Shown here in pieces: positions 8,779 through 22,053 of a stretch of DNA of 33,783 nucleotides. The position numbers and the translations under genes are program-made. The notes below the pieces were generated by a model. It searched no databases, was not told the DNA's origin, and saw nothing but the letters and a program-made list of their open reading frames with translations. How positions within the stretch are numbered: position 1 is the first letter of the stretch; the number at the start of each line of letters is the position of its first letter. This DNA comes from Labilithrix sp. (lineage in GTDB: Bacteria; Myxococcota_A; Polyangia; Polyangiales; Polyangiaceae), in NCBI GenBank assembly GCA_044227045.1, contig JBGAFW010000037.1, forward strand, positions 65,129 through 98,911. The letters are read 5' to 3'.

Positions 8779-11148
8779 ATGCCCGGCAAAACGACGAACA
8801 CCAACTCGAACAAACAACGCATTCACGAGCTCGAAGGCCTCCTCCGCAAATACAAGGACGCCTACTACAACGGGGAAGCTCTGGTCTCCGACGCAGCGTA
8901 TGACGCGCTCGAAGACGAGCTTCGTGCGCTCGACCCGAACCACGCGATCCTGAAGAGCGTCGGCGCGCCTGTTCGAGCGAAGAAGGTCGAAGAGGTCGAG
9001 GAGGACGAAGGCGCCGTCACCGAGTGGGAGAAGGCCAACCACGCGATCCCGATGGGGTCGCTCAACAAAGCCGTCAACGACGGTGAGTTCCGCCAGTGGG
9101 CCGCGCGATGCGATCAGCTCGCCGCCGAGAGCAAGCTAGGCAAGGTGGCGCAGAACCTCCTCGTCACCGAGAAGCTCGACGGGCTCTCGCTCGCGGTGAA
9201 CTACGAGAAGGGCAAGCTGGTCGAGGCGATCACACGTGGTGACGGTCATGTCGGCGAGCGCATCACCCCGAACGCACGCCGGATGAAGGGCGTCCCGGCG
9301 AAGCTCCCCGAGCCGCTCACGGTCTCGATTCGTGGCGAGATCATCCTGAAGCTCTCCGACATGAAGAAGGCGTGGCCGGGCTACGACAGCCCCCCGCGCA
9401 ACAAAGCGGCGGGCACGTCCAAGCGCTTCGACGGGCAGGGCTGCGAGCACCTCACGGTGATGTTCTACGACCTCGCCGGCGACGAGCAGTTCGCGACGGA
9501 AGAAGACAAATACAAGCGCATCGCCGAGCTTGGCCTGATCGTCCCCGAGTTCACCGTCACCGATCTCGAAGGCGCGCTGAAGATCCACAAGGAGTACGCG
9601 CGTTCGAAGCGCGCAGCCCTCGACTACGAGATCGACGGTCTCGTCATCCGCGCCAACGATCTGCGCACCCAGGAGCTGCTCGGTGAGCTCGGCGGCCGGC
9701 CGCGTGGCGCGGTCGCCTTCAAGTTCGCGTCGATGGCGAAGACCACGAAGGTCATCCAGATCGACTGGGAGACCGGCCCGACGGGACGTGTCACGCCCAT
9801 CGCGACGGTCGAGCCGATCGAAATCGGTGGCGCCGTCGTCCAGCGCGTCGTCCTCCACAACGTGTCGAACATCGAGCGTCTCGGCATCGGCGTCGGCGAC
9901 GAGGTCCTCGTGTCGCGCCGCAACGACGTCATTCCTCATATGGAGGAGGTGGTCGTCAAGCATGGCAAGACGGAGGTCCCACCCACCAACTGCATCACCT
10001 GCGAAGGCGAGCTCGTTCGCAAGGGCGAGTATCTCTGCTGCACCAACCTCGAGTGCAGCGATCTCGTCGAAGGTCGAATTCATCGCTGGGTCGGCGCCCA
10101 AGACATTCACGAATGGGGCGACAAGCTCATCGCCCAGCTCGTCGAGGCAGACCTCGTGCGCGAGCCGGCCGACCTCTACAAGCTCACGGTCGACGACATC
10201 GCCAAGCTCCCGGGGCGCGGCAAGATCATCGGCAAGAAGGTGATCGACAACCTCCACGCCAAGCTCCCGCTGTCGCTTCCACTCTTCCTCGCGTCGCTCG
10301 GCATCGAGGAGTTCGCGCTCGAGACGGCGAAGCTGCTCGTCTCGAAGGGCTACGACACGCTCGAGAAGCTGCAGAGCGCGAACGTCGACGAGATCGCCGC
10401 GATCAAAGGCATGGGCGCGATCCGCGCGAAGCATGTCGTCGGTGGATTGGCGGCGCGCAAAGAGGAGATCGAGCGTCTCCTCGCCGTCGGCGTCGTGCCG
10501 GTCATCCCCGGCGCGAAGGGCGCGGGTGGCCTCGCCGGCAAGAGCTTCTGCTTTACCGGCACGCTCCCACGACCGCGCAAAGAATACGAAGACATGGTCG
10601 AGAAGAACGGCGGCACGCTGCTCTCGGGCGTGACGAAGGAGCTCAACTACCTCGTCATGGCGGATCCGAACTCCGGCTCGACGAAGGCGGAGAAGGCGCG
10701 CAAGTATGGGACCGAGTGCATCAGCGCCGAGCAGTTCATGGAGCTCATCGCCGCGGCCGCTGCGGGTGGTGGCGGCGCCGCGACGAACGGCGCAGGCGTC
10801 TTCGAAGACGAGGGCGAAGACGAAGACGAAGACAAACCGAAGAAGAAGGCGAAGGCCGCGCCAGCGGCATCGTCCGGCTCGCTCTCGACCGCGCTCGAAG
10901 GTAAGACGGTCTGCTTCACCGGCGCGCAGCCACGCAAGCGCTCCGTGCTCGAGCAGATCGTGCAAGACAACGGCGGCACCGTCCTCGATCGCGTCACGAA
11001 GGGGCTCACCTACCTCGTCATGGCCGACCCCGACTCGGAGTCGACGAAGGCACGCAAGGCCCGAGAGTACGGCACCGAATGCATCGATCTGGCCACGCTC
11101 GAGGGCATCATCAAGAAGAACGGCGGCGTCGTCCCCGACGACGAGTGA
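8779..11148 (+). CDS. ligA: NAD-dependent DNA ligase LigA with a duplicated C-terminal BRCT domain
   Basis: Adenylation motif KLDG, OB fold, Cys4 Zn finger (CITCEGE...CCTNLEC), HhH motif (LPGRGKIIGKK). Two near-identical BRCT units (LAGKSFCFTG...YLVMADP / LEGKTVCFTG...YLVMADP) are separated by an acidic/Lys-rich linker. GAGGA lies 8 nt before the ATG. Confidence 0.9.
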   Translation: MPGKTTNTNSNKQRIHELEGLLRKYKDAYYNGEALVSDAAYDALEDELRALDPNHAILKSVGAPVRAKKVEEVEEDEGAVTEWEKANHAIPMGSLNKAVNDGEFRQWAARCDQLAAESKLGKVAQNLLVTEKLDGLSLAVNYEKGKLVEAITRGDGHVGERITPNARRMKGVPAKLPEPLTVSIRGEIILKLSDMKKAWPGYDSPPRNKAAGTSKRFDGQGCEHLTVMFYDLAGDEQFATEEDKYKRIAELGLIVPEFTVTDLEGALKIHKEYARSKRAALDYEIDGLVIRANDLRTQELLGELGGRPRGAVAFKFASMAKTTKVIQIDWETGPTGRVTPIATVEPIEIGGAVVQRVVLHNVSNIERLGIGVGDEVLVSRRNDVIPHMEEVVVKHGKTEVPPTNCITCEGELVRKGEYLCCTNLECSDLVEGRIHRWVGAQDIHEWGDKLIAQLVEADLVREPADLYKLTVDDIAKLPGRGKIIGKKVIDNLHAKLPLSLPLFLASLGIEEFALETAKLLVSKGYDTLEKLQSANVDEIAAIKGMGAIRAKHVVGGLAARKEEIERLLAVGVVPVIPGAKGAGGLAGKSFCFTGTLPRPRKEYEDMVEKNGGTLLSGVTKELNYLVMADPNSGSTKAEKARKYGTECISAEQFMELIAAAAAGGGGAATNGAGVFEDEGEDEDEDKPKKKAKAAPAASSGSLSTALEGKTVCFTGAQPRKRSVLEQIVQDNGGTVLDRVTKGLTYLVMADPDSESTKARKAREYGTECIDLATLEGIIKKNGGVVPDDE

Positions 11149-11272: not shown

Positions 11273-11288
11273 TTGGCCACCCGCTCCC

Positions 11289-11352
11289 AACCCTCCCGCT
11301 GATCACGTTCGGTCTCGTACAACCCTCCCGCTGATCACGTTCGGTCTCGTAC
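11289..11352. repeat. Perfect 2 x 32-bp direct tandem duplication (AACCCTCCCGCTGATCACGTTCGGTCTCGTAC), ending 15 nt before the ATP-grasp start codon
   Basis: Exact match seen by eye between 11289-11320 and 11321-11352. Confidence 0.9.
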
Positions 11353-11367
11353 CATCGAGCCTCCATC

Positions 11368-12585
11368 ATGCGCGTCGTATTCCTTTCACCTGCTTATCCC
11401 GTGGACATGATCAAGTTCACGCGTGGCCTCGCCGAGGTCGGAGCGCAGGTCTATGGCGTTGGCGACACCCACCGCGACCAGCTCTCGCCCGCGGTGAAGC
11501 CTTACCTCCACGATTACTTGCAGGTTCCACGCATCCTCGACGAGGGCGATGTGATGGAGCGCATCTCGGGCTGGCTGCGCGGCCGCACGGTCGATCGCGT
11601 GCTCACCAACTGGGAGCCGCTCGTGATGCTCGCCGCTCGGCTCCGCGAACGGTGGGGCATGCCGGGGATGTCGGTCGACACCGTGCGAGCGTTTCGTGAC
11701 AAGGAGATCATGAAGCAGCGCGTTCGTGCTGCGGGCCTTCGCGTCCCGAAGTCACGCCGCGTGCACACCGCCGCGCAGGTGCGAGAGACGGCGGAGGAGT
11801 TTGGCTATCCGCTCATCTTGAAGCCGATCGCCGGCGCTGGCTGCGCCGACACCTACGAGGTCCGCAGCGTCGCCGAGCTCGAGCAGGTGCTCCCACGCCT
11901 CGGCGGATTGCCCGAGGCGTCTTGCGAGGAGTACATCGAAGGCGAAGAGCTCACCTACGACACGATCTGCATCGATGGCAAAGCGAAGATGGAGAATGTG
12001 TCCCAGTACTTCCCGAAGCCACTCGAAGCGCGCACGCACGAGTGGATCAGCCCGATCGCGATCAGCGTCCGCGATCTGACGCAGCCCCGCCTTCAGGCCG
12101 GCCTCGCGCTCGGCCGCGCCGTGAACGACGTGCTCAAGATGGGCGACGGCTTCACGCACATGGAGTGGTACCTCACACCCAAAGGTGAGGCGGTGTTTGG
12201 TGAGATTGGATGCCGTCCAGGCGGCGCCGGCCTCGTCGACCAAATGAACTACACGTTCGACGCCGACCTCTTTCGCGAGTGGGCACGCGTGTGCTGTTGG
12301 GGGCACTTCGAGGCGAGCACCGAGCGCAAGTACAACGTCGGCATCGTCTTCAAGCGCGCCCAGGGCTGGGGCTACATCACACGCATCGAAGGCCTACAAA
12401 ATTGGCTGCGCATGTGTGGCCGATGGGTCGTCGAGGAGAGCCTCCTCAAGCCCGGCACGCATCGTCGCGACTGGAAGCAGACGCAAACCTCCGACGGGCA
12501 CGTCGTCGTGCGTCATCCCGACTGGGACGAGGCGCTCCGCATGTGCTACGCGGCCGCGACCGACATCAAGATGTACGCGCAATGA
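11368..12585 (+). CDS. ATP-grasp domain protein (carboxylate-amine ligase, or L-amino-acid-ligase-like)
   Basis: 405 aa. ATP-grasp signatures present: GYPLILKP.AGAG, EEYIEGEE, and ME.YLTPKGEAVFGEIGCRPGG. GC3 is high. Confidence 0.7.
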   Translation: MRVVFLSPAYPVDMIKFTRGLAEVGAQVYGVGDTHRDQLSPAVKPYLHDYLQVPRILDEGDVMERISGWLRGRTVDRVLTNWEPLVMLAARLRERWGMPGMSVDTVRAFRDKEIMKQRVRAAGLRVPKSRRVHTAAQVRETAEEFGYPLILKPIAGAGCADTYEVRSVAELEQVLPRLGGLPEASCEEYIEGEELTYDTICIDGKAKMENVSQYFPKPLEARTHEWISPIAISVRDLTQPRLQAGLALGRAVNDVLKMGDGFTHMEWYLTPKGEAVFGEIGCRPGGAGLVDQMNYTFDADLFREWARVCCWGHFEASTERKYNVGIVFKRAQGWGYITRIEGLQNWLRMCGRWVVEESLLKPGTHRRDWKQTQTSDGHVVVRHPDWDEALRMCYAAATDIKMYAQ

Positions 12586-12721
12586 GCTGAGTCGGAGGTC
12601 TCCCGACGAGCTTCCCGGCGGCGTGACACCTCGATCTCAGGAGGGCCCGCGCGACGACGATCGGCGCGCCGTCACAGAATGGGCACCGTCCGCGAAGAGC
12701 CTTGAAACAAGGAGCTCGCGC

Positions 12722-13366
12722 ATGGCGTTTCCAATCTCGATGGCCCCCTCGTCTTCCTCACAGTCCGCTCGCAGCTTCGCCGCGCGCCGTGCCGCGCTCT
12801 TCTTCGCCAGCCGGCTGATCCTCGCCGCCGGCATCGCCGCGAGCGCGCTCATCGTCTTTCTCCCCAAGAACACCCACGCCGACGACTCGGATGAGGTGAA
12901 CGACTGGGAGCGCGCCGGTGAGTACGTCACCAACGACGAGGGCGAATACCAAGGGCAGATGTTCGGCAAGGTGCTCGTCAAAGGCGAGCTGAAGAGCACG
13001 GCGACCGGCTGGGTGCTCGTTCGCACGTTCGAGAACCAGAGCGACGAGCCGCAGACCGCGGTGGTCGAGGAGAAGCTCTCGCAACAGCTGACCGCCAACT
13101 ACGCACGCGTCTCGCCGCCCTCCGTGACGCTGATCCTCCGCACGCAGAAGGTGGCGCTGAAGCCGCACGAAAAGAAATCGATCGGCATCATCATCCCTCC
13201 TGCGATCAGCGCCGAGATGGATCGCAACGCCAAGATTCAAGCGGCGATCGCCCAAGAGCAGAAGCGCATGGCGGAAGACGAGACGGGCGAGCATCCGATG
13301 AACCTCGCGCTCCTCCAGCGAACGTATACGGCCTACAACGTCGGGATCCCAACGAAGGGCTCGTGA
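12722..13366 (+). CDS. Hypothetical secreted or membrane-anchored protein (214 aa)
   Basis: The in-frame ATG at 12722 begins a hydrophobic signal/anchor (FFASRLILAAGIAASALIVFL). The upstream part of ORF 12416 overlaps the ATP-grasp gene out of frame and is rejected. Confidence 0.5.
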   Translation: MAFPISMAPSSSSQSARSFAARRAALFFASRLILAAGIAASALIVFLPKNTHADDSDEVNDWERAGEYVTNDEGEYQGQMFGKVLVKGELKSTATGWVLVRTFENQSDEPQTAVVEEKLSQQLTANYARVSPPSVTLILRTQKVALKPHEKKSIGIIIPPAISAEMDRNAKIQAAIAQEQKRMAEDETGEHPMNLALLQRTYTAYNVGIPTKGS

Positions 13367-13511
13367 CGAAGCCCGAGTTCATGCCCGAGCCGCCTCCGCT
13401 CGAGAACGCAAAGCTCGTCGCCGGCAGCGCGAAGGTCGCCAACAACCGAGCCGACACCCTCTGATTTTTGGCCGGCGCGACGCTTCGGACCCAACGCACG
13501 CTGTCTGCTCG

Positions 13512-14771
13512 ATGATGACCGCCCAACACACGAAGCTCCAGCGCTCGAGCTCGAGGCTCCTGAGCTCGAAGGTGAAGCCCGCGCTCACGCTGGCGTTCGG
13601 GCTCCTCCTCGCGTGCGCCGCGTTCGTCATCCACATGCGGCTCACGCGTGTCGTCGCGAAGCCCTCCGCGCCACCGCAGCTCGCCGGCCATCACGTCGTG
13701 TCGGACGACGTCGGCGGGCTCGACGAGGTGTTGATGCACTACGTGCCGGAGCTCGAGCCGGTATTCGATGTAACCTACAAGGACTTTCTCGGTACCCTCC
13801 CGCCCGAGACGCGGCTCGTGTTCGTCATTCAACGAGGTCGCCGCGCCTCGCTCGACGCGTTCCTGCGTCGCATCGGCGCCCAGACGCGCCTCGAAGCGGG
13901 ACGAGGCCGCGTCGTCGAGCTCGACGTCCCGATCGGCATCTGGTCGAAGGATCGCGCGCTCGTCCTCGCGAGCGACCGCGATCCGCGTGCGAGCATGCTC
14001 CTCGTTCCACCAAAACCCCAAACGGGCGACGGCGCGACGCTGGGAGCGTCAGGGTCGTCACGTCCCTTCGATTGGCAAATCATCCCGGCGGTGGCCCGCG
14101 CGATGCCCGACCGCGGCTTCGAGGTGAAGGAGCTGCCGCTCGCGTTCGACGCCGGCGACTTCGCGATCGCGGGCAACAAAGTCATCTTCGACGCGAACCT
14201 CCTCGGCCGCAACCGCACGCGTGGCTACGCGACCGCCGCGGCGCTTCACGAAAAGATGCGTGCGCTGCTCGGTCGTGACGTCGTGATGCTCGGCACCGAA
14301 GAAGGCGACGTGCCTCGTCATCACATGTCGATGTACATGGCGCCGCTGCCTGGAGGCACCGTCCTCGTCGGCGACCCCTCGCTCGCCGAGCGCATCGTCG
14401 GCAAGGGCTACGTGCCAGGAGAGACGAGCGTCGAGACGGGCCAAGCGCTCACCGCGGACTTCTCCGCAGCGACGCAAGCCCGCTTCGACCGCGCCGCGCG
14501 CGACCTGACGCGAGCCGGCTTCCACGTCGTGCGCGTCCCGAACGTTCCGTTCGACGACAAAACGTACTTCGCCTACACGAACGGCGTGTACGAGACGCGC
14601 GGCGGCCATCGCCGAGCGTGGGTCCCGAAGCTCGACGTACCCGACCTCGACCGCGCCGCGTTCCGCGTCTACGAGGACCAAGGCTTCGAGGTCATCCCCA
14701 TCAACGTACGCAAGGTGTATCCCCAACACGGCACGATCGGCTGCCTGGTCAACGTGCTCTCCCGAAGCTGA
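13512..14771 (+). CDS. Membrane-anchored guanidino-group-modifying enzyme superfamily (pentein fold) protein. It resembles the agmatine deiminase / peptidyl-arginine deiminase family.
   Basis: N-terminal TM helix (LTLAFGLLLACAAFVI). IWSKDRA resembles the W.RD motif. A Cys lies near the C-terminus in G.IGC (HGTIGCLV), which looks like the catalytic-Cys motif of that superfamily. The family assignment is tentative. Confidence 0.45.
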   Translation: MMTAQHTKLQRSSSRLLSSKVKPALTLAFGLLLACAAFVIHMRLTRVVAKPSAPPQLAGHHVVSDDVGGLDEVLMHYVPELEPVFDVTYKDFLGTLPPETRLVFVIQRGRRASLDAFLRRIGAQTRLEAGRGRVVELDVPIGIWSKDRALVLASDRDPRASMLLVPPKPQTGDGATLGASGSSRPFDWQIIPAVARAMPDRGFEVKELPLAFDAGDFAIAGNKVIFDANLLGRNRTRGYATAAALHEKMRALLGRDVVMLGTEEGDVPRHHMSMYMAPLPGGTVLVGDPSLAERIVGKGYVPGETSVETGQALTADFSAATQARFDRAARDLTRAGFHVVRVPNVPFDDKTYFAYTNGVYETRGGHRRAWVPKLDVPDLDRAAFRVYEDQGFEVIPINVRKVYPQHGTIGCLVNVLSRS

Positions 14772-14937
14772 GCCACGCTGGCGCGGGTTGGCCACGCTGG
14801 CGCGGGTTGGCCACGCTGGCGCGGGTTGGCCACGCTGGCGTGGGTAGGCCACGCTGGCGTGGGTGGGCCACGCTGGCGCGGGTGGGCCACGCTGGCGCGG
14901 GTGGGCCACGCTGGCGCGGGTGGGCCACGCTGGCGCG
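14772..14937. repeat. 19-bp tandem array (GCCACGCTGGCGCGGGTTG), 8 full copies plus a partial one. It starts on the base after the stop codon of the upstream CDS.
   Basis: Unit starts fall at 14772, 14791, 14810, 14829, 14848, 14867, 14886 and 14905, with a partial unit at 14924. Variant units differ by 1-2 nt (cgcgggttg, cgtgggtag, cgcgggtgg). Confidence 0.9.
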
Positions 14938-16106
14938 AGTTACCCCACGCGGATTCGCGAAACGCCTTGGTTGAAAAGGGTGAAAGAAGAGAGAGACGTG
15001 CGTCAGGTTGAGCGCGGGCTCGCGAAAGCACCTTGGTTGAAAAGGGTGGTCCGTGGAAAACGAGCAGGTTGGGCCACGCTGGGCGCGAGACCTTGGTTGA
15101 AAAGGGTCGTTCGACAAAACACGTCGTGGAACGACCACGCACGGTCCGACAGCCGCCAGCGACCGACGCCAGCGCGAGCTGAGTCGCCACTGGGCGAAAA
15201 CGCCTTTGTTGAAAAGGGAGAGCCCTGCACGTCGGCGACCGCGCTGGCGCGGGTAGGCCACGCTGGCGCGGGTAGGCCACGCTGGCGCGGGTCGCCACGC
15301 GGGCGCGGGTCGCCACGCAGGCGCGAGTTAACCCACGCGGATTCGCGAAACGCCTTGGTTGAAAAGGGTGGAGGAACCGCTCGACGAAACACGTCCTTAG
15401 AACCAGCGCGAGCTCTGGGGAAGAGGGTGGAGAGCACCCATGCACGGGGTTGCACGCTGGCGCCGCTGGGCGCGAAATACCCTGGTTGAAAAGGGTCGTT
15501 CGGAAACGCATCTGTGGACGACCCGCGGTCTGATGCATGCGCCAGCGACCGACGCCCGCCAGCGCGAGCACCTCTGAGCCGCGCGCGCCGCCTCGCGTCA
15601 CTTCGCGAAAACGCCTTTGCTGAAAAGGGGAAAACCGCGCGGCTTGGCCACGCTGGCGTGGGTTGGCCGCGCTGGCGCGGGTTACGCTGGCGCGAACACC
15701 TGGTTGAAAAGGTGGAGGATCCGTTCGACGAAACGCGTCTTTGAACGAGCGCGCGGCGTCACTTCGCGAAAACGCCTTTGTTGAAAAGGGTGGACCCTGC
15801 GCACGGCTGCGACGCGTGGGTTGGCCACTCTGGCGTGGGTTGGCCACGACGGCGCGGGTTGGCTACGACGGCGCTGGATGAAGGCGCGGCGAGCTTCGGG
15901 CGAAAACGCCGTTGTTGAGAAGGGTGAACCCTGCGCACTGCTTGGCCACGCTGGCGCGGGTCGGCTGGGTTCGCGAGAGGTATCGGCGAGCTCGAGGGGC
16001 GCCAAGATCTGGATCTCGCCGCGCCTCTCGTCCAGCGCGCGAGCGAAAACACCTTTGTTGAAAAGGGTGAAGGCCACGCTGGCGCGGGTCGGCCATGCTG
16101 GCGTGG
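14772..16106. repeat. Composite higher-order tandem repeat region. It has 19-mer GC-rich arrays in several places. It has 11 copies of a 28-bp motif (about CGCGAAAACGCCTTTGTTGAAAAGGGTG) with core TTGAAAAGGGTG. It also has degenerate units of roughly 130-200 bp.
   Basis: Core copies fall at 14971, 15037, 15097, 15208, 15359, 15486, 15620, 15704, 15781, 15915 and 16058. Extra 19-mer clusters lie at 15246-15318, 15645-15688, 15817-15875 and 16072-16106. Block 14925-14990 is duplicated at 15300-15370, and 15088-15270 resembles 15474-15680. Confidence 0.85.
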
Positions 16107-16249
16107 ACCTTTAGGGACTTGCCTGCCGTTCTCGCCACACTGGAAAGCGAAGTGAAATGTGGGAGACGTCGAACAAGAAGGAGGTGTGGTCCGTCGAACG
16201 CGTCATTCGATCGGGCGACATGCCCACTTACTGGAACAACCTTCGAAAA

Positions 16250-16546
16250 ATGCGTCGCTTTTCCTCACTCATCCTCGCGTCCTCACTTCTCCTCTCTGCA
16301 TTTGGCTGCGCGTCGAAGCCTGCGCCCGTCGCAGCGGCTCCGACAACGGGCGCCGAGATCGATACGAGTGACCCTTCGTGGGCGCCGCCCCAAGATGGGG
16401 TCGTCGTCGTGGAGAAGCCTGCGGTTAATGAGAACGAGAACGTGGCGGGCGCGGCGCGGAAGCCAGGTGCGCCTGCGGTCGCGATGCCGGCGCCGAACGC
16501 GCGGGCCTCGGCGGCCAAAGGGTCGATTCACGCAGCGACGAACTGA
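16250..16546 (+). CDS. Small lipoprotein (98 aa), hypothetical
   Basis: ATG 16250 begins MRRFSSLILASSLLLSAFGC with lipobox LSAFGC. The mature part is Ala/Pro-rich. Confidence 0.45.
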   Translation: MRRFSSLILASSLLLSAFGCASKPAPVAAAPTTGAEIDTSDPSWAPPQDGVVVVEKPAVNENENVAGAARKPGAPAVAMPAPNARASAAKGSIHAATN

Positions 16547-16570
16547 GGGTGAACTACAGTCGCGCGCACG

Positions 16571-17608
16571 ATGAAGCGCGTGCGAATTCACAAGGCTGGC
16601 GGCTACGAGCGGCTCGCGATCGAGACCTCGCTCCCCGATCCCACTCCAAAGACTGGTGAGGTGCGCGTCGCCGTGGAGGCGATTGGCGTGAACTTCGCGG
16701 ACTGCATCGTGCGGATGGGGCTCTACGCGTCGGCGAAGGAGTACGTCGGCTGGCCGATCACGCCTGGCTTCGAGGTGGCTGGGACGATCGACGCGGTCGG
16801 CGACGGCGTCACGCAGTGGAAGGTGGGGGGCCGCGTCATCGGGCTCACGCGATTTTTCGGTTACTCGTCGAGCGTCGTCGTTCCAGAGGAGCAGGTGTTT
16901 GCGATCCCTGATGCGTGGTCGATGGAGCAGGCCGCGGCGTTTCCCGTCGTCTACCTCACCGCGGACTACGCGCTGTTCGAGCTGGCGCGACCTCGCAAGG
17001 GCGCGAAGGTGCTCGTTCACTCCGCGGCGGGCGGCGTCGGCGGCGCGCTCTTGCAGCTCGCGCGCACGGCGGGCTTCGAGACGGTCGGCGTGGTGGGGCG
17101 CACGGAGAAGGTCGAGGCTGCGAAGAAGCTCGGCGCCACCCATGTCATCGACAAGAGCACGCAGGATCTTTGGGCGGAGGCCGAGCGCATCGCACCGAAG
17201 GGATACGACGCGGTGCTCGACGCGAATGGCGTGTCGACGCTACGTGCAAGTTACAAGCATCTACGGCCCACCGGGCGGCTCGTGATTTATGGGTTCCACT
17301 CGATGATGCGCAAAGACGGGCCGGGCACTCCAAGCTGGCCGAAGCTCGCGGCGGATTGGGTGAGGACGCCGCGGTTCAATCCGCTCGACATGACGAACGA
17401 CAACAAGAGCGTGATGGCGTTCAACCTGTCCTACTTGTTCGAGGAGAAACACCTCCTCGAAGAGGCGATGGAGCGGCTGATGCGGCTCGTGAAAGAGGGG
17501 AAGATCGAGCCACCTCCCACGCAGACGTTCAAGCTCGAGGCAGTCGCCGATGCCCACCGCGCGATCGAGTCGGGCAGGACGACCGGCAAGCTCGTGCTGC
17601 TTACCTAG
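16571..17608 (+). CDS. MDR-superfamily NAD(P)H:quinone oxidoreductase / zinc-binding dehydrogenase-like (VAT-1-like)
   Basis: GroES-like N-terminus. The Rossmann motif is LVHSAAGGVGGALLQLAR. The overall length and layout match quinone oxidoreductases. Confidence 0.75.
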   Translation: MKRVRIHKAGGYERLAIETSLPDPTPKTGEVRVAVEAIGVNFADCIVRMGLYASAKEYVGWPITPGFEVAGTIDAVGDGVTQWKVGGRVIGLTRFFGYSSSVVVPEEQVFAIPDAWSMEQAAAFPVVYLTADYALFELARPRKGAKVLVHSAAGGVGGALLQLARTAGFETVGVVGRTEKVEAAKKLGATHVIDKSTQDLWAEAERIAPKGYDAVLDANGVSTLRASYKHLRPTGRLVIYGFHSMMRKDGPGTPSWPKLAADWVRTPRFNPLDMTNDNKSVMAFNLSYLFEEKHLLEEAMERLMRLVKEGKIEPPPTQTFKLEAVADAHRAIESGRTTGKLVLLT

Positions 17609-20068: not shown

Positions 20069-20896
20069 ATGGCGGCGTACCGGGATGAGGCAGCGTCACT
20101 CGAGGAGCGGCATCGCCAACTGCGTCGAGCGCTCGAAGAGACACGGGCGCGCTCGAGCGCGCTCACGCAAGAGGAGGCGCATCTCCACCAGGAGCTCGCC
20201 AAGATCCATCGCGAGCTCGAGGCCCGTGCACGCGCGCCGCGCCGCTCGCTGCCGATGGTGAACATGCTGATCGCGTCGCCGTGCGACGTGCCGTGGGAGA
20301 AGATGGTCGGCGACGATCGCGTGCGTCACTGCGGCCAGTGCGACAAGAACGTCCACAACCTCTCCGCGATGACGACGGACGAAGCGCACGCCTTCCTCGA
20401 GAGCATGACGCGCACAAACCACAAGACGGGCGCGCCGCTGCCTTGCCTGAACCTTTGGCAACGCCACGACGGCACCGTCATCACCGCCGACTGCCCGGTC
20501 GGTGTTCGCCGCCGGCGCATGCGCTCGCTCTTGGCCGCGTCGCTCGGCGTCGGGGGCGCGGCCGTCATCGCGGCCACCGCGCTTGCGGTGATGGGTGCGT
20601 CACCCGCATCACCGCAGTCATTCACCATCACCACGTCACCAACGATTCAACCCATCACGCCCACGGCTTACGTCGACACGAACGGCTACATCGCCGTCGA
20701 AGGCACGCCGGGCATTCGCATTTACGACGACCACGGCTTCGTCGGGGTGACGCCGCTCACCTACGTGGCGAACCTCACGACATACGTGCAGGCGCAGTCG
20801 GTGGCGCACGTACGTGTCGACATGCAGCCGACGCCGCCGATTCGCATGGCGGGCGCGCCGCCGCCGTCGCTTCGGGTCGGAGGAGGAAAGCGATGA
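20069..20896 (+). CDS. Membrane protein with an N-terminal coiled coil, a conserved 5-Cys domain, one TM helix, and a degenerate C-terminal PEGA-like domain
   Basis: The Cys domain reads LPMVNMLIASPCDVPW...HCGQCDKNVHNLSAMT...PCLNL...TADCPVG. The TM helix is LLAASLGVGGAAVIAATALAVMG. It is a paralogue of the next gene. Confidence 0.6.
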   Translation: MAAYRDEAASLEERHRQLRRALEETRARSSALTQEEAHLHQELAKIHRELEARARAPRRSLPMVNMLIASPCDVPWEKMVGDDRVRHCGQCDKNVHNLSAMTTDEAHAFLESMTRTNHKTGAPLPCLNLWQRHDGTVITADCPVGVRRRRMRSLLAASLGVGGAAVIAATALAVMGASPASPQSFTITTSPTIQPITPTAYVDTNGYIAVEGTPGIRIYDDHGFVGVTPLTYVANLTTYVQAQSVAHVRVDMQPTPPIRMAGAPPPSLRVGGGKR

Positions 20897-22053
20897 GCGA
20901 CACGATCCGCATCCTGCCTCGTGGCGCGACGAGCGGCGAGGACGGCGTGACGCCGACGACGCGTGGTCGCGCCTTCGAAGCCTCTTCGGAGGCGGAGACG
21001 CCGTACGGCATGATGGCGAAGGGCGCGCCCGCGCGCATTCCGCGCCGGTCATCACCCGCGGTGATCCTGAACGCGGGCGAGCTCCCGACGAGCGCACCTG
21101 CCGACGACGTGATCGAACGCCAGCGCGCGCTCGCGCAGCGGCTCGACGAGGTGCGCGAGCAGAACACCCGCCTTCGCGTGGAAGAGAAGCGACTCGAACG
21201 AGAGATCGCGTCGGTTCAGGAAGGGCTGAGGGCAGGGCGACGGCAGCTGCCAATGGCCAAGATGCTGATCGCGAGCCCTTGCGATGTGCCGTGGAGCGCG
21301 ATGCAAGAGGAGGATCGCTCGGGGGATCGACGGCGATTCTGCGGCAAGTGCCACAAGCACGTCCACAACCTCGCCGCGATGACGCGCGTCGAAGTGGAGG
21401 ACTTCCTCGAAGCGAACGCGCGGGCGAGCGACGACAACAGCGGAGTCTGCGTCCGTCTCTACGAGCGCACCGATGGCACCGTGCTCACAGCAGATTGTCC
21501 GGTCGGGCTGAACCGCCGGCGTTCGCGCGCGGTGCTGCTCGCGTCGCTCGGCGCCGGCGCCTGCGCGCTCTTTGGCTTCAGCGCGATCGCGCTTGCGATG
21601 ACCACGTTCTCGCCGACGCCGCCACCGCCAGCGCCGGCGCCGCGGATCGTCGTCGAGCAGGGGCCCACGGTGTACGTGCCGCAGGTGATCGAGCGAATTC
21701 CTGCAGGATACACGCGTCTCCCCGACGCTGCGGCCGGCGCGGGCTGGGTCTTTCTTCGCGCTCCGGAAGGCGCGAAGATCTTCGAGGGCAAGCGTTTGCT
21801 CGGCACCGGTCCGCTCGTCCTCACGATGAGCGCCGGAGAGCACACGCTGCGCGCGGAAGGCGTCGACGCGGCGACGGGCAAGAAGTGGACGGACTCACGC
21901 TCGTTCACGATCGCCGCCGGAAACGCTCCGGGCGGCGTCGCGAAGACCGACGTGGTCTTCATGAAGCCGGCCATGCGCCCAAGCCCTCCGAAGCCCGCGG
22001 CCGAGGACATCGCCGAGCTCGCCGGTCTCCTCCAGAGCACGAACCAGCTCTGA
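20893..22053 (+). CDS. Membrane protein with an N-terminal coiled coil, a conserved 5-Cys domain, one TM helix, and a canonical C-terminal PEGA domain
   Basis: Its ATG at 20893 overlaps the upstream TGA (ATGA), and GGAGGAAAG lies just before it. The Cys domain reads LPMAKMLIASPCDVPW...FCGKCHKHVHNLAAMT...VCVRL...TADCPVG. The PEGA motif is LRAPEGAKIFEGKRLLGTGPL...GEHTLR. Confidence 0.65.
   Translation: MSDTIRILPRGATSGEDGVTPTTRGRAFEASSEAETPYGMMAKGAPARIPRRSSPAVILNAGELPTSAPADDVIERQRALAQRLDEVREQNTRLRVEEKRLEREIASVQEGLRAGRRQLPMAKMLIASPCDVPWSAMQEEDRSGDRRRFCGKCHKHVHNLAAMTRVEVEDFLEANARASDDNSGVCVRLYERTDGTVLTADCPVGLNRRRSRAVLLASLGAGACALFGFSAIALAMTTFSPTPPPPAPAPRIVVEQGPTVYVPQVIERIPAGYTRLPDAAAGAGWVFLRAPEGAKIFEGKRLLGTGPLVLTMSAGEHTLRAEGVDAATGKKWTDSRSFTIAAGNAPGGVAKTDVVFMKPAMRPSPPKPAAEDIAELAGLLQSTNQL

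Follow-up and report, generated by a model that had tools for sequence, protein, structure and literature searches.

What kind of sequence fills the ~1.3 kb between two same-strand genes of a soil myxobacterium, where two classes of short module, designated A and B, are interleaved? The block spans positions 14772-16106 of the window (the whole 33.8-kb stretch of DNA analysed) and is a real, non-coding composite higher-order repeat. It is best explained, with a probability of about 0.6, as a lineage-specific, fast-evolving non-coding mosaic repeat cluster of the STAR, REP/BIME or VNTR type, located in the 3′ region of a 419-residue gene of a Polyangia-type myxobacterium.

The genes around the block have housekeeping roles (ligA, an ATP-grasp gene, ADH, a molybdopterin oxidoreductase, ddl and an RND efflux system), and the contig bears ligA together with other chromosomal genes. 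A domain search of the window ORFs revealed no transposase, RAYT, cas, par or rep gene within ~15 kb of the block. The GC content is about 65-66% for the window and about 67% for the block, below the 70% stated in an earlier note on this DNA. The flanking features are:

13512-14771, plus strand: upstream gene, 419 amino acids, from the ORF list; GC at codon positions 1/2/3 of 0.71/0.47/0.85
16107-16249, plus strand: leader of the downstream gene, unique, conserved and outside the repeat
16250-16546, plus strand: probable lipoprotein gene, 98 amino acids, MRRFSSLILASSLLLSAFGC..., with the signal ...LLLSAFGC
16571-17608: zinc-type alcohol dehydrogenase gene, directly after the lipoprotein gene

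The 419-residue upstream protein belongs to an uncharacterised family conserved in Myxococcota; 354 homologues were found, the named ones from Labilithrix, Polyangiaceae and Myxococcales MAGs, and searches of Pfam, NCBIfam and the PDB returned no match. Its TGA stop codon adjoins the first A unit directly. The downstream gene is most likely the 98-residue lipoprotein with a start at 16250, as judged from the signal peptide, and with this start the intergenic gap would be 14772-16249.

Tandem Repeats Finder defines the A unit as a GC-rich, self-complementary 19-mer, GCCACGCTGGCGCGGGTGG, present at 14772-14937 in 8.7 copies with a period of 19 and a 97% match. Other 19-bp arrays were reported at 15242-15325, 15637-15683 and 15810-15873. 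Fuzzy matching across the window yielded 21 A units, every one on the plus strand and grouped into six clusters, which bears out the claim of a 19-bp GC-rich tandem unit in at least five clusters. At most three mismatches being allowed, 20 matches were obtained versus 0.10 expected from shuffles. The A features are:

14772-14942, plus strand: A minisatellite of nine head-to-tail 19-bp units, GCCACGCTGGCG(C/T)GGGT(T/A/G)G (Tandem Repeats Finder and unit listing)
15238-15330, plus strand: A tract of ~5 units, the end of higher-order unit 1 and the beginning of unit 2
15647-15684, plus strand: A tract of 2 units
15824-15861, plus strand: A tract of 2 diverged units, then a third, more degenerate unit
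15945-15963, plus strand: lone A unit
16073-16106, plus strand: terminal A tract of 1.7 units, with the right boundary ...GGACCTT kept in the relative L096
15160-15178, minus strand: weak inverted A-like segment, with a 15-nt arm 87% complementary to the A tract at 15240-15254
15550-15568, minus strand: weak A-like segment in inverted orientation, with 87% complementarity to the A unit at 15668-15682

Each minisatellite unit resembles its nearest neighbours most, the order being three TTG units, one TAG, four TGG and then one degenerate unit. The inverted A-like segments number only two, and both are weak 15-19-mers.

The B unit is ~28 bp long, with a core, GTTGAAAAGG, that is invariant in all 15 copies examined from the source strain and its relatives. 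A search with the core TTGAAAAGGGTG gave 10 matches at two or fewer mismatches versus 0.65 expected. Indel-tolerant and profile searches of the window place 11 B copies, the number given earlier, all on the plus strand and all within the block; in the remaining 32 kb of the window the profile search found no copy of A or B. The copies are 60-100% identical to each other and fall into two subtypes, I and II. Their spacing is irregular, and the range of 64-150 bp once quoted for it becomes 60-150 bp on measurement. The B copies are:

14957-14982, plus strand: B1, type II, CCTTGGTTGAAAAGGGTG
15022-15048, plus strand: B2, type II
15083-15108, plus strand: B3, type II, ending in GGGTC, then an 8-bp inverted repeat GGTCGTTC...GAACGACC
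15194-15220, plus strand: B4, type I, GCGAAAACGCCTTTGTTGAAAAGGGAG, between the inverted A-like segment and the A tract
15345-15370, plus strand: B5, type II
15472-15497, plus strand: B6, type II, paralogue of B3
15605-15630, plus strand: B7, type I, paralogue of B4
15689-15714, plus strand: B8, type II
15766-15792, plus strand: B9, type I, the consensus copy GCGAAAACGCCTTTGTTGAAAAGGGTG
15900-15926, plus strand: B10, type I, with two substitutions
16043-16069, plus strand: B11, type I, orthologue of the single canonical B of the relatives

The two modules are organized at a higher level. The nine-unit A minisatellite runs from the stop codon and is followed by two clear copies of a ~388-bp unit and then by a third, rearranged copy:

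14924-15311, plus strand: higher-order unit 1, ~388 bp, comprising linker, B1, B2, B3, inverted A-like segment, B4 and A tract
15312-15688, plus strand: higher-order unit 2, ~377 bp, clearly paralogous to unit 1 by alignment
15689-16106, plus strand: third unit, rearranged with the module order kept, from alignments and the direct repeat D7

Direct-repeat families D5, D6, D9 and D11 link units 1 and 2 at a spacing of 386-390 bp. Between these two units identity is 89% at A positions, 87% in the B cores and 69% in the spacers, and the second B position of unit 2 (15410-15430) is degenerate. Direct-repeat search and alignment uphold the earlier note's paralogy between the regions near 15088-15270 and near 15474-15680, and the duplication that it placed at 14925-14990 and 15300-15370 corresponds to 14924-14988 and 15312-15376, which are 94% identical and 388 bp apart. 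The third unit reads B8, B9, two to three A units, B10, A, spacer, B11 and 1.7 A units. Its spacers barely align to those of units 1 and 2 (47-52%), and D7 pairs 15363-15398 with 15707-15742 at 86%. Over all comparisons between higher-order copies, identity is 85-91% at A positions, 73-87% in the B cores and 47-69% in the spacers, so that the modules are better conserved than the spacers.

Does any part of this block encode a protein? The public annotation calls a 392-residue minus-strand protein at 14669-15847. The ORF is uninterrupted in the block and was deposited as a protein, both of which speak for a coding gene. Against it, ORFs in the block have a flat GC profile over the three codon positions (0.66/0.67/0.67 versus ~0.66/0.45/0.85 in real genes here), a period of 19 bp is not divisible by three, and the ORF shares 103 bp with the 3′ end of the upstream gene. 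A search of 5.8 billion protein clusters with the 392-residue sequence returned no homologue but itself, with no Pfam match, and the 208-residue plus-strand ORF had no homologue among 1.84 billion representatives. The block lacks coding potential: that it is a protein-coding gene can be practically dismissed, and the annotated protein is spurious, its existence effectively refuted.

Scans for other known features were equally negative. Rfam gave no family at the gathering score for the block and nothing meaningful at E ≤10, and the tRNA/tmRNA scan of the block found none. Between 14000 and 17000 there was no sigma-70-like promoter, and terminator-like sites were below shuffle expectation. As read from the sequence, none of the TTGAAA cores of B has a -10-like hexamer 17 bp downstream. 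A sigma-54 or sigma-70 promoter in A or B was discarded for want of the spacing and of a second element. A replication origin with iterons was also rejected, there being no DnaA boxes and no rep genes; a local turn in GC skew is not evidence of an origin because it is due to the G-rich repeats and gene orientation. An array of iterons or partition sites was discarded as well: no rep or par gene lies within ~15 kb, and the repeats are not helically phased, neither in the contiguous 19-bp A period nor in the 60-150-bp B spacing.

RNA folding of the A array (14765-14905) gave -97.6 kcal/mol for the plus strand (z = -5.38) and -73.8 kcal/mol for the minus strand (z = -4.43), with CCACGC/GCGTGG arms within and between A units. 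The array thus has a strong folding potential. A sliding-window scan located the strongest significant structure at the A tracts, and windows containing only B were not significant. Folds around B4 (15150-15299) and B7 (15540-15689) had z values of -2.0 and -2.26, and B alone did not fold significantly (z about -0.2 to +1.0). The predicted B hairpin has a 5-7-bp stem, CGCCUUU/AAGGGUG with G-U wobbles, around the AT-rich loop and 3′ arm. The CCTTT/AAAGG hairpin described before is exact in five of the 11 B copies; the others carry CCTTG, ACCCT, CACCT or GCCGT. In B8 one base is deleted from each stem arm, leaving the 5-bp stem CACCU/AGGUG. Pairing occurs in 82% of the stem cells, and shifting the partner by 1-3 columns lowers this to 45-60%. 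Covariation in the B stem scored 0.234 versus 0.128 in shuffles, with none of 500 shuffles reaching 0.234, a support that is overstated because the 15 copies used as input are related paralogues. Fifteen B-stem cells are G-U pairs, which work only in plus-strand RNA. Conservation of B is asymmetric: the loop and the 3′ arm are invariant, and the 5′ arm varies with G-U-compatible changes.

Relatives of the source strain were available as six independent short-read contigs from other samples and sequencing runs (L001, L093, L095, L096, L097 and L098). All six have A and B modules at the same locus, with flanks 92-97% identical to the window. Each of these contigs ends in the repeats or at their margin, and the alleles are seen only in part. 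Among relatives with this flank identity there are four different alleles between the same two genes, and L095 and L097 are 91% identical to the window at third codon positions. The relatives have ~1 A unit after the stop codon versus 8.7-9 in the window, and unrelated spacers add to the contrast in architecture. L093 and L098 show one partial A and two B within 124 bp. L095 begins with a partial A fragment and one A unit, then has ~130 bp without counterpart in the window; L097 differs from L095 by an additional 49-bp B module, and no target-site duplication is seen at the junction of this indel. The locus is thus hypervariable among close relatives, which share the two modules at the same place in very different numbers and arrangements, as the suggestion of a satellite-like VNTR had anticipated.

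The variation is uneven along the locus. Modules are 87-100% identical between strains and spacers fall to about 70%. The last ~170 bp of the third unit have their orthologue in the tail of the alleles carried by the relatives; within this tail, 26 of 27 positions of B11 and 40 of 46 positions of A are identical, versus 45 of 64 in the spacer, which also has 25 indel columns. B11 is identical to L095 at 26/27 positions and 100% identical to L093 and L098 over 30 bp. The 143-bp leader that follows the block has 132 of 137 aligned bases in common with L096 (96%), plus one 6-bp indel. In the relative L094 (67% protein identity), the downstream genes are different and no A or B units were found; the neighbour genes also differ in the relative on contig P0004 (69% protein identity).

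Further copies were sought more widely. In 185,579 representative genomes the B core RCCTTKGTTGAAAAGGGTG had 77 single matches in unrelated taxa, none clustered and none accompanied by A. In JGI metagenome contigs the B core AACRCCTTKGTTGAAAAGGG had 14 single matches, none of them clustered, and viral contigs scanned for A and B gave single chance matches only. Translated repeat ORFs used as probes for other repeat loci returned themselves or nothing, a weak negative because the relatives' known repeat tails are not called as genes either. No second locus with clustered A and B was found in the window, the representative genomes, the JGI metagenome contigs or the viral contigs. An occurrence nowhere else, which the earlier note held against its own proposals, is borne out to the extent that no collection searched holds a clustered copy.

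Other readings of the block deserve to be weighed against a mosaic repeat cluster. It may be an array of binding sites for a sequence-specific protein, with B as the site and the A tracts as structural spacers, acting either as DNA (regulator titration, or a nucleoid- or partition-like sink) or as RNA (a CsrB-like sponge showing GUUGAA loops). The invariance of the core GTTGAAAAGG in 15 copies while its surroundings diverge agrees with this, as do the AT-rich patch that the core forms in 66% GC DNA, the half-sites CCTTT and AAAGG that read from the sequence as 10 bp apart centre to centre, and the single orientation of the eleven B copies. A palindromic dimer site is unlikely because the loop and 3′ arm are invariant and the 5′ arm is variable. 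The close relatives have only one to two B copies, which disfavors a dosage-critical platform, and the irregular B spacing of 60-150 bp also fits poorly. No DNA-binding, par or rep gene adjoins the block, so the neighbouring genes lend no support to the partition-like or nucleoid sink suggested at the outset, and the window ORFs encode no dedicated protein partner nearby. A binding-site array is therefore considered doubtful. In its RNA form, the repeated predicted hairpins presenting a conserved GUUGAA loop are CsrB-like features. It is quite improbable that the B hairpin (GUUGAA loop and AAGG arm) is a recognition element for a lineage-specific protein, with the 11 copies serving as a sponge or sink; if it were, the 11-copy allele would retune the availability of that protein and would represent a strain-variable myxobacterial analogue of CsrB/RsmZ-type decoys.

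An origin from MITE- or REPIN-like non-autonomous mobile elements, inserted repeatedly at one hot spot and since decayed, could account for the 49-bp B module that L097 has and the near-identical L095 lacks, for the REPIN-like placement of inverted A-like segments beside B4 and B7, and for modules better conserved than spacers. Yet A and B all have the same orientation, no terminal inverted repeats bound any unit, and the L097/L095 junction lacks a target-site duplication. The spacers are themselves paralogous between higher-order units, and therefore the copies arose by segmental duplication in place rather than by independent insertion. With no copy elsewhere in the window, no multi-copy genome in the collections searched and no transposase or RAYT within ~15 kb, a decayed MITE cluster, one of the original suggestions, is unlikely. 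Small structured RNA genes in tandem, with one discrete transcript per unit, would suit the plus-strand hairpins favored by G-U pairs (-97.6 versus -73.8 kcal/mol for the A array) and the partial covariation of the B stem. However, such an array is opposed by the absence of an Rfam match and of promoter-like sites in 14000-17000, by units that outside the A tracts fold no better than shuffles, and by a copy number that varies widely between close strains; this reading is very unlikely. Equally improbable is an assembly artefact, that is, collapsed, expanded or chimeric repeats in the deposited contig. In other samples every short-read unitig stops within the repeats or at their border, and nine near-identical 19-mers spanning 171 bp make a count hard to fix with short reads. 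Nevertheless, independent assemblies of six sequencing runs recover the two boundaries and the two module families, the divergence of 13-50% between the higher-order copies permits unambiguous assembly, and the contig extends over 98.9 kb with normal genes on both sides.

Among known systems, the block is much like REP/BIME and STAR clusters, and by this comparison is a curiosity rather than a new kind of system. The rarity first claimed for it was overstated, as mosaic intergenic repeat clusters are well known (REP/BIME, such as REP325, and STAR). STAR elements of Staphylococcus aureus (PMC3532100) are likewise intergenic, with short direct repeats in one orientation, a composition contrasting with that of the genome and recurring spacers of at least 40 bp between repeats; at fixed intergenic loci they expand and contract between strains. 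In contrast to the AT-rich core in a GC-rich genome seen here, STAR has a GC-rich 14-mer in an AT-rich genome; its consensus, T[GAT]TGTTG[GT]GGCCC[CA], is unrelated, and its host is staphylococcal instead of myxobacterial. STAR occupies many loci per genome versus one locus in the data searched, and unlike STAR the block interleaves a second tandem module of 19 bp. A TTTGTTG heptamer is common to STAR and B, probably by chance. REP/BIME clusters such as REP325 (bioRxiv 10.64898/2026.03.23.713779; PMC3333891) similarly consist of stem-loop units and linkers between same-strand genes, begin just after a stop codon and vary between strains in location and copy number. Like A (z = -5.4) and the B hairpin, the REP unit is imperfectly palindromic and can form a stem-loop. 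Within BIMEs, REPs point in alternating directions, whereas 21/21 A and 11/11 B are direct repeats on the plus strand; moreover, REPs occur by the hundreds per genome and are tied to RAYT transposases, and the window holds no RAYT.

A CRISPR array shares with B the direct repeats of ~28 bp, the small hairpin and the non-repeat sequence between. CRISPR repeats are near-identical and regularly spaced with unique spacers, whereas the B copies are 60-100% alike and 60-150 bp apart, with paralogous spacers. With no cas domain in any window ORF and no CRISPR-DR match in Rfam, this candidate was rejected, in agreement with the earlier note. The defining features of a VNTR or minisatellite are present, namely head-to-tail A units whose copy number differs between strains. 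The MIRU VNTRs of mycobacteria likewise lie between the genes of a high-GC genome, as tandem units whose copy number depends on the strain; they differ from the block in having uniform units of 40-100 bp that are often translationally coupled to the flanking genes. BOX elements of pneumococci resemble it in their modular A-B(n)-C build, in which the internal modules vary in number, and in the stable RNA structure predicted for them, but are dispersed at >100 loci. To our knowledge, neither MIRU nor BOX has a two-class interleaved higher-order arrangement. Most work on mosaic repeats between genes concerns enterobacteria, pseudomonads, staphylococci, streptococci and mycobacteria, and the literature searched yielded no description of one in Myxococcota.

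As a mosaic repeat cluster, the block could have grown from a short ancestral region consisting of the stop codon, an A hairpin, a spacer, B, two A units and the leader of the next gene. Two ordinary processes would have added ~1 kb in the source strain. Replication slippage of the 19-bp unit may have produced the nine-unit minisatellite, and unequal recombination between A tracts may have duplicated the intervening ~388-bp segment to give the higher-order units.

REP325, situated between the tandem genes yjdM and yjdN, is both a partial terminator and a stabiliser of the upstream mRNA (bioRxiv 10.64898/2026.03.23.713779), and it is the model for the role proposed here. If transcribed, the block probably forms a stem-loop barrier in a 3′UTR, a role suggested purely by position and folding. 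Presumably, if co-transcribed with the gene before them, the stacked A and B stem-loops would behave like E. coli REP clusters, as barriers to 3′-exonucleases and as partial terminators, which would stabilise the upstream mRNA and reduce read-through into the lipoprotein gene. Alleles would then differ in their ratio of upstream to downstream expression, provided that the barrier role holds. The locus could serve as a test of REP-like terminator and stabiliser behaviour in high-GC deltaproteobacterial relatives, and could be used to type strains of an uncultured soil lineage. It also shows that a 392-residue protein in the public annotation is spurious; no new molecular system is indicated.

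The locus also raises the question of how modules stay intact while spacers outpace silent codon positions. Orthologous spacers are ~70% identical versus 91% at third codon positions, so the spacers diverge faster than silent sites. Judged from these sequence comparisons, slippage with neutral drift alone does not fully explain this rate, and recombination with divergent alleles or structure-induced mutagenesis may contribute to the fast divergence of the spacers.

The block at 14772-16106 begins directly 3' of the TGA stop codon of a gene for a 419-aa protein. Tandem Repeats Finder reports 8.7 copies of the 19-bp A unit GCCACGCTGGCGCGGGTGG (97% match) at 14772-14937 and three additional 19-bp arrays at 15242-15325, 15637-15683 and 15810-15873. 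With up to three mismatches, the A unit has 20 matches in the window, 19 of them in the block, where dinucleotide shuffles predict 0.10. The core of the second unit, B (TTGAAAAGGGTG), gives 10 matches with up to two mismatches against 0.65 expected; indel-tolerant matching with a profile search yields 11 copies (B1-B11) of a ~28-bp unit with consensus GCGAAAACGCCTTTGTTGAAAAGGGTG. The repeats described in the earlier note are thus real by array detection and shuffle controls, its count of 11 is reproduced, and both paralogies it pointed out hold; the surrounding DNA, which it put at 70% GC, is about 65-66% GC. Every one of the 21 A and 11 B units lies on the + strand, and profile searches found no further copies of either in the other 32 kb of the window.

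Features of the block and of the three genes preceding it; the higher-order units and the third stretch derive from their alignment (A1) and direct-repeat families D5-D11.
11368-12585, ATP-grasp ligase-like gene, same strand as the next two genes
12584-13366, gene for a 260-aa protein, same strand
13512-14771, gene for the 419-aa protein, same strand
14772-14942, + strand, A minisatellite of nine head-to-tail units
14924-15311, higher-order unit 1, ~388 bp
15312-15688, higher-order unit 2, ~388 bp, a clear copy
15689-16106, third stretch, same modules, similar order

The variable position of the A minisatellite shifts stepwise (TTG three times, TAG, TGG four times), the pattern left by slippage. 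Higher-order units 1 and 2 each comprise four B positions, of which the second is degenerate in unit 2, one short A-like segment in inverted orientation and, at the end, an A tract; the spacers of the third stretch are barely alignable to either. Identity between the higher-order copies is 85-91% at A positions, 73-87% in B cores and 47-69% in spacers. The B copies fall into type I, ...AAAACGCCTTTGTTGAAAAGGGTG (B4, B7, B9, B10 and B11), and type II, ...CCTTGGTTGAAAAGGGT(G/C) (B1, B2, B3, B5, B6 and B8). The repeat had been said to fill the intergenic gap, and does so from the stop codon onwards, but the final 143 bp are a unique leader sequence, since the downstream gene, encoding a 98-aa lipoprotein (signal ...LLLSAFGC), most probably starts at 16250. 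Five consecutive A units at 14848-14925 read GGGTGGG, which gives + strand runs of G3-N1-G3-N12-G3-N1-G3 that could form a G-quadruplex.

The block is non-coding, and no known RNA or system corresponds to it. GC at the three codon positions is ~0.66/0.45/0.85 in the real genes of the window and flat, ~0.66/0.67/0.67, in every ORF crossing the block. The public annotation places a 392-aa protein (P0121) across the repeat on the - strand (14669-15847). A search of 5.8 billion protein clusters returned only P0121 itself, which together with its flat codon-position GC makes it almost certainly a spurious gene call; a 208-aa + strand ORF likewise has no homologue among 1.84 billion representatives. 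A protein-coding block is refuted by these profiles and searches. Rfam gave nothing at gathering score and noise alone at E <=10 for the block, no tRNAs or sigma-70-like promoters were found, and terminator-like sites are not in excess.

Sliding-window folding with shuffle controls located significant structure mainly at the A tracts, with z ranging from -3.3 to -4.5 across 14750-14999 and as low as -4.0 within 15150-15299; for windows holding only B and for the flanking genes, z does not go beyond about +/-2. Folding energies of the A array are -97.6 kcal/mol (z = -5.38) for + strand RNA and -73.8 kcal/mol (z = -4.43) for - strand RNA. The B hairpin, 7 bp (CGCCUUU-GUUGAA-AAGGGUG), is not significant alone; the CCTTT/AAAGG hairpin of the earlier note exists, its exact stem being confined to five B copies. 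Across 15 copies, taken from the strain and from relatives, invariance is confined to the loop and 3' arm (G-TGA-AAGG) and does not extend to the 5' arm. Hairpin cells are paired in 82% of cases against 45-60% with the partner slid by 1-3 columns, and in three of the seven pairs both partners change. The covariation score of 0.234 (0.128 in shuffles) was reached by none of 500 shuffles. G-U pairs occupy 15 hairpin cells; the opposite strand, or a DNA palindrome, would have mismatches there. Together these counts lend modest support to a B hairpin in + strand RNA or in single-stranded DNA, and as the copies are related paralogues they fall short of proof.

Orthologous flanking genes, 92-97% identical to the window in nucleotides, are carried by six short-read contigs from six different sequencing runs; these contigs end inside the repeats, so that the allele layouts cover the sequenced part only. 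L001 (flank 97.5%; third codon positions of the 419-aa ORF 99.8% identical) ends 3 nt short of the end of that ORF, as expected for a unitig meeting a repeat. L096 reproduces both the right boundary ...CGGGTCGGCCACGCTGGCGCGGACCTT and the leader. L093 and L098 share an allele in which the stop is followed by part of an A unit, a B-like unit, ~50 bp, one degenerate A, TGGGTTCGC, B and A. In L095 the stop codon is followed by a partial A fragment and one A unit, ~130 bp that resemble nothing in the window block, then one degenerate B, a pair of A units, TGGGTTCGC, 60 bp of spacer, B and a further pair of A units. L097 has the L095 layout with an additional 49-bp module, containing B, directly after the first A; no flank is duplicated at the module junction. 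Two more distant relatives, L094 (67% protein identity) and the P0004 contig (69% identity), differ in downstream and in neighbouring genes, respectively, and L094 has no A/B modules.

The last ~170 bp of the window block are orthologous to the tails of the relatives, with 26 of 27 positions identical in B11, 40 of 46 in A and 45 of 64, with 25 indel columns, in the spacer. The spacer at 15966-16042 is ~70% identical to L095 2900-2950, with many indels, whereas identity at third codon positions of the 419-aa gene is 91% in L095 and L097. For the downstream leader it is 96%. The repeat region thus changes more quickly than silent sites. Nearly intact modules amid fast-diverging orthologous spacers suggest either module constraint or unusually mutable spacers. 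An assembly artefact, raised in the earlier note, is contradicted by independent assemblies that reproduce the elements, the exact A copy number being provisional. The comparison indicates that the elements are real and that the locus is hypervariable within roughly one species, in line with the VNTR-like variation proposed earlier, as same-locus alleles differ in module number and layout. The 1.3-kb allele probably arose in this lineage by expansion of an ancestral region that was much shorter.

Exact-pattern scans returned 77 single matches to the B core among 185,579 representative genomes and 14 in JGI metagenome contigs. Together with matches from the viral contigs, scanned for both B and A, these are isolated singles in unrelated taxa, and chance would account for their number; no locus in the scanned collections had more than one strict B match or a B match plus A units. 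B is thus not a high-copy family in any searchable genome. Nothing comparable was found in the literature on myxobacteria, and the A/B block represents a repeat family not described before, in a phylum that has received little study.

Most likely, the block is a mosaic repeat cluster specific to its lineage and belongs broadly with STAR elements, REP/BIME clusters, BOX elements and MIRU-type VNTRs, a well-known kind of bacterial genome feature. Its anatomy suggests that the minisatellite grew by slippage of the 19-bp unit and that the ~388-bp segment lying between A tracts was duplicated when those tracts recombined unequally. Given where the block lies, its strand bias and its folding, we propose that the stem-loops stacked from the upstream stop codon, if transcribed, would act as a partial terminator and 3'-exonuclease barrier, as does REP325 of E. 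coli (bioRxiv 10.64898/2026.03.23.713779); different alleles may then set different upstream/downstream expression ratios. For specialists the block is of mild interest, both for strain typing and for testing whether REP-like regulation operates from its 3'UTR.

An array that binds a protein on DNA or RNA remains a candidate because the B core is invariant, but conservation within B is asymmetric, alleles of relatives hold one to two copies and there is no partner gene; a strain-variable protein sponge or sink formed by the B hairpins seems very improbable. The inverted A-like segments, like the 49-bp indel, are reminiscent of a MITE/REPIN nest. The uniform orientation, the paralogous spacers and the absence of both terminal inverted repeats and a target-site duplication speak against it, and against the decayed MITE cluster suggested earlier. 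An array of small-RNA genes lacks support, with neither promoters nor Rfam matches nor significant folding outside the A tracts.

No machinery associated with the repeat family was found, and the neighbourhood in the window contains no transposase, RAYT, integrase, cas, par or rep genes. It is ordinary chromosome, with genes for an NAD-ligase, the ATP-grasp enzyme, two uncharacterised conserved proteins, a zinc alcohol dehydrogenase, a molybdopterin oxidoreductase, an L,D-transpeptidase, Ddl, a response regulator and an RND efflux pump. The three same-strand genes at 11368-14771 apparently form an operon. Neither the 260-aa nor the 419-aa protein matches Pfam, NCBIfam or PDB; the latter represents a conserved uncharacterised family with >350 homologues in Myxococcota genomes and metagenomes, those named being from Labilithrix, Polyangiaceae and Myxococcales MAGs. 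These names mark the organism as a Polyangia-type myxobacterium.

Other duplications occur in the window. A perfect 32-bp tandem duplication (CAACCCTCCCGCTGATCACGTTCGGTCTCGTA twice, 11288-11351) shows no sequence relationship to A or B. It stops 17 bp upstream of the start, at 11368, of the ATP-grasp gene and may be a recent slippage event in a 5' leader. Segments 20239-20400 and 21237-21410, ~1 kb apart and 71-79% identical, indicate tandemly duplicated paralogous genes without Pfam annotation. Within the 3' part of the NAD-ligase gene, a 192-nt duplication (10531-10722 and 10894-11085, 71% identity) corresponds to the two BRCT domains of the gene.
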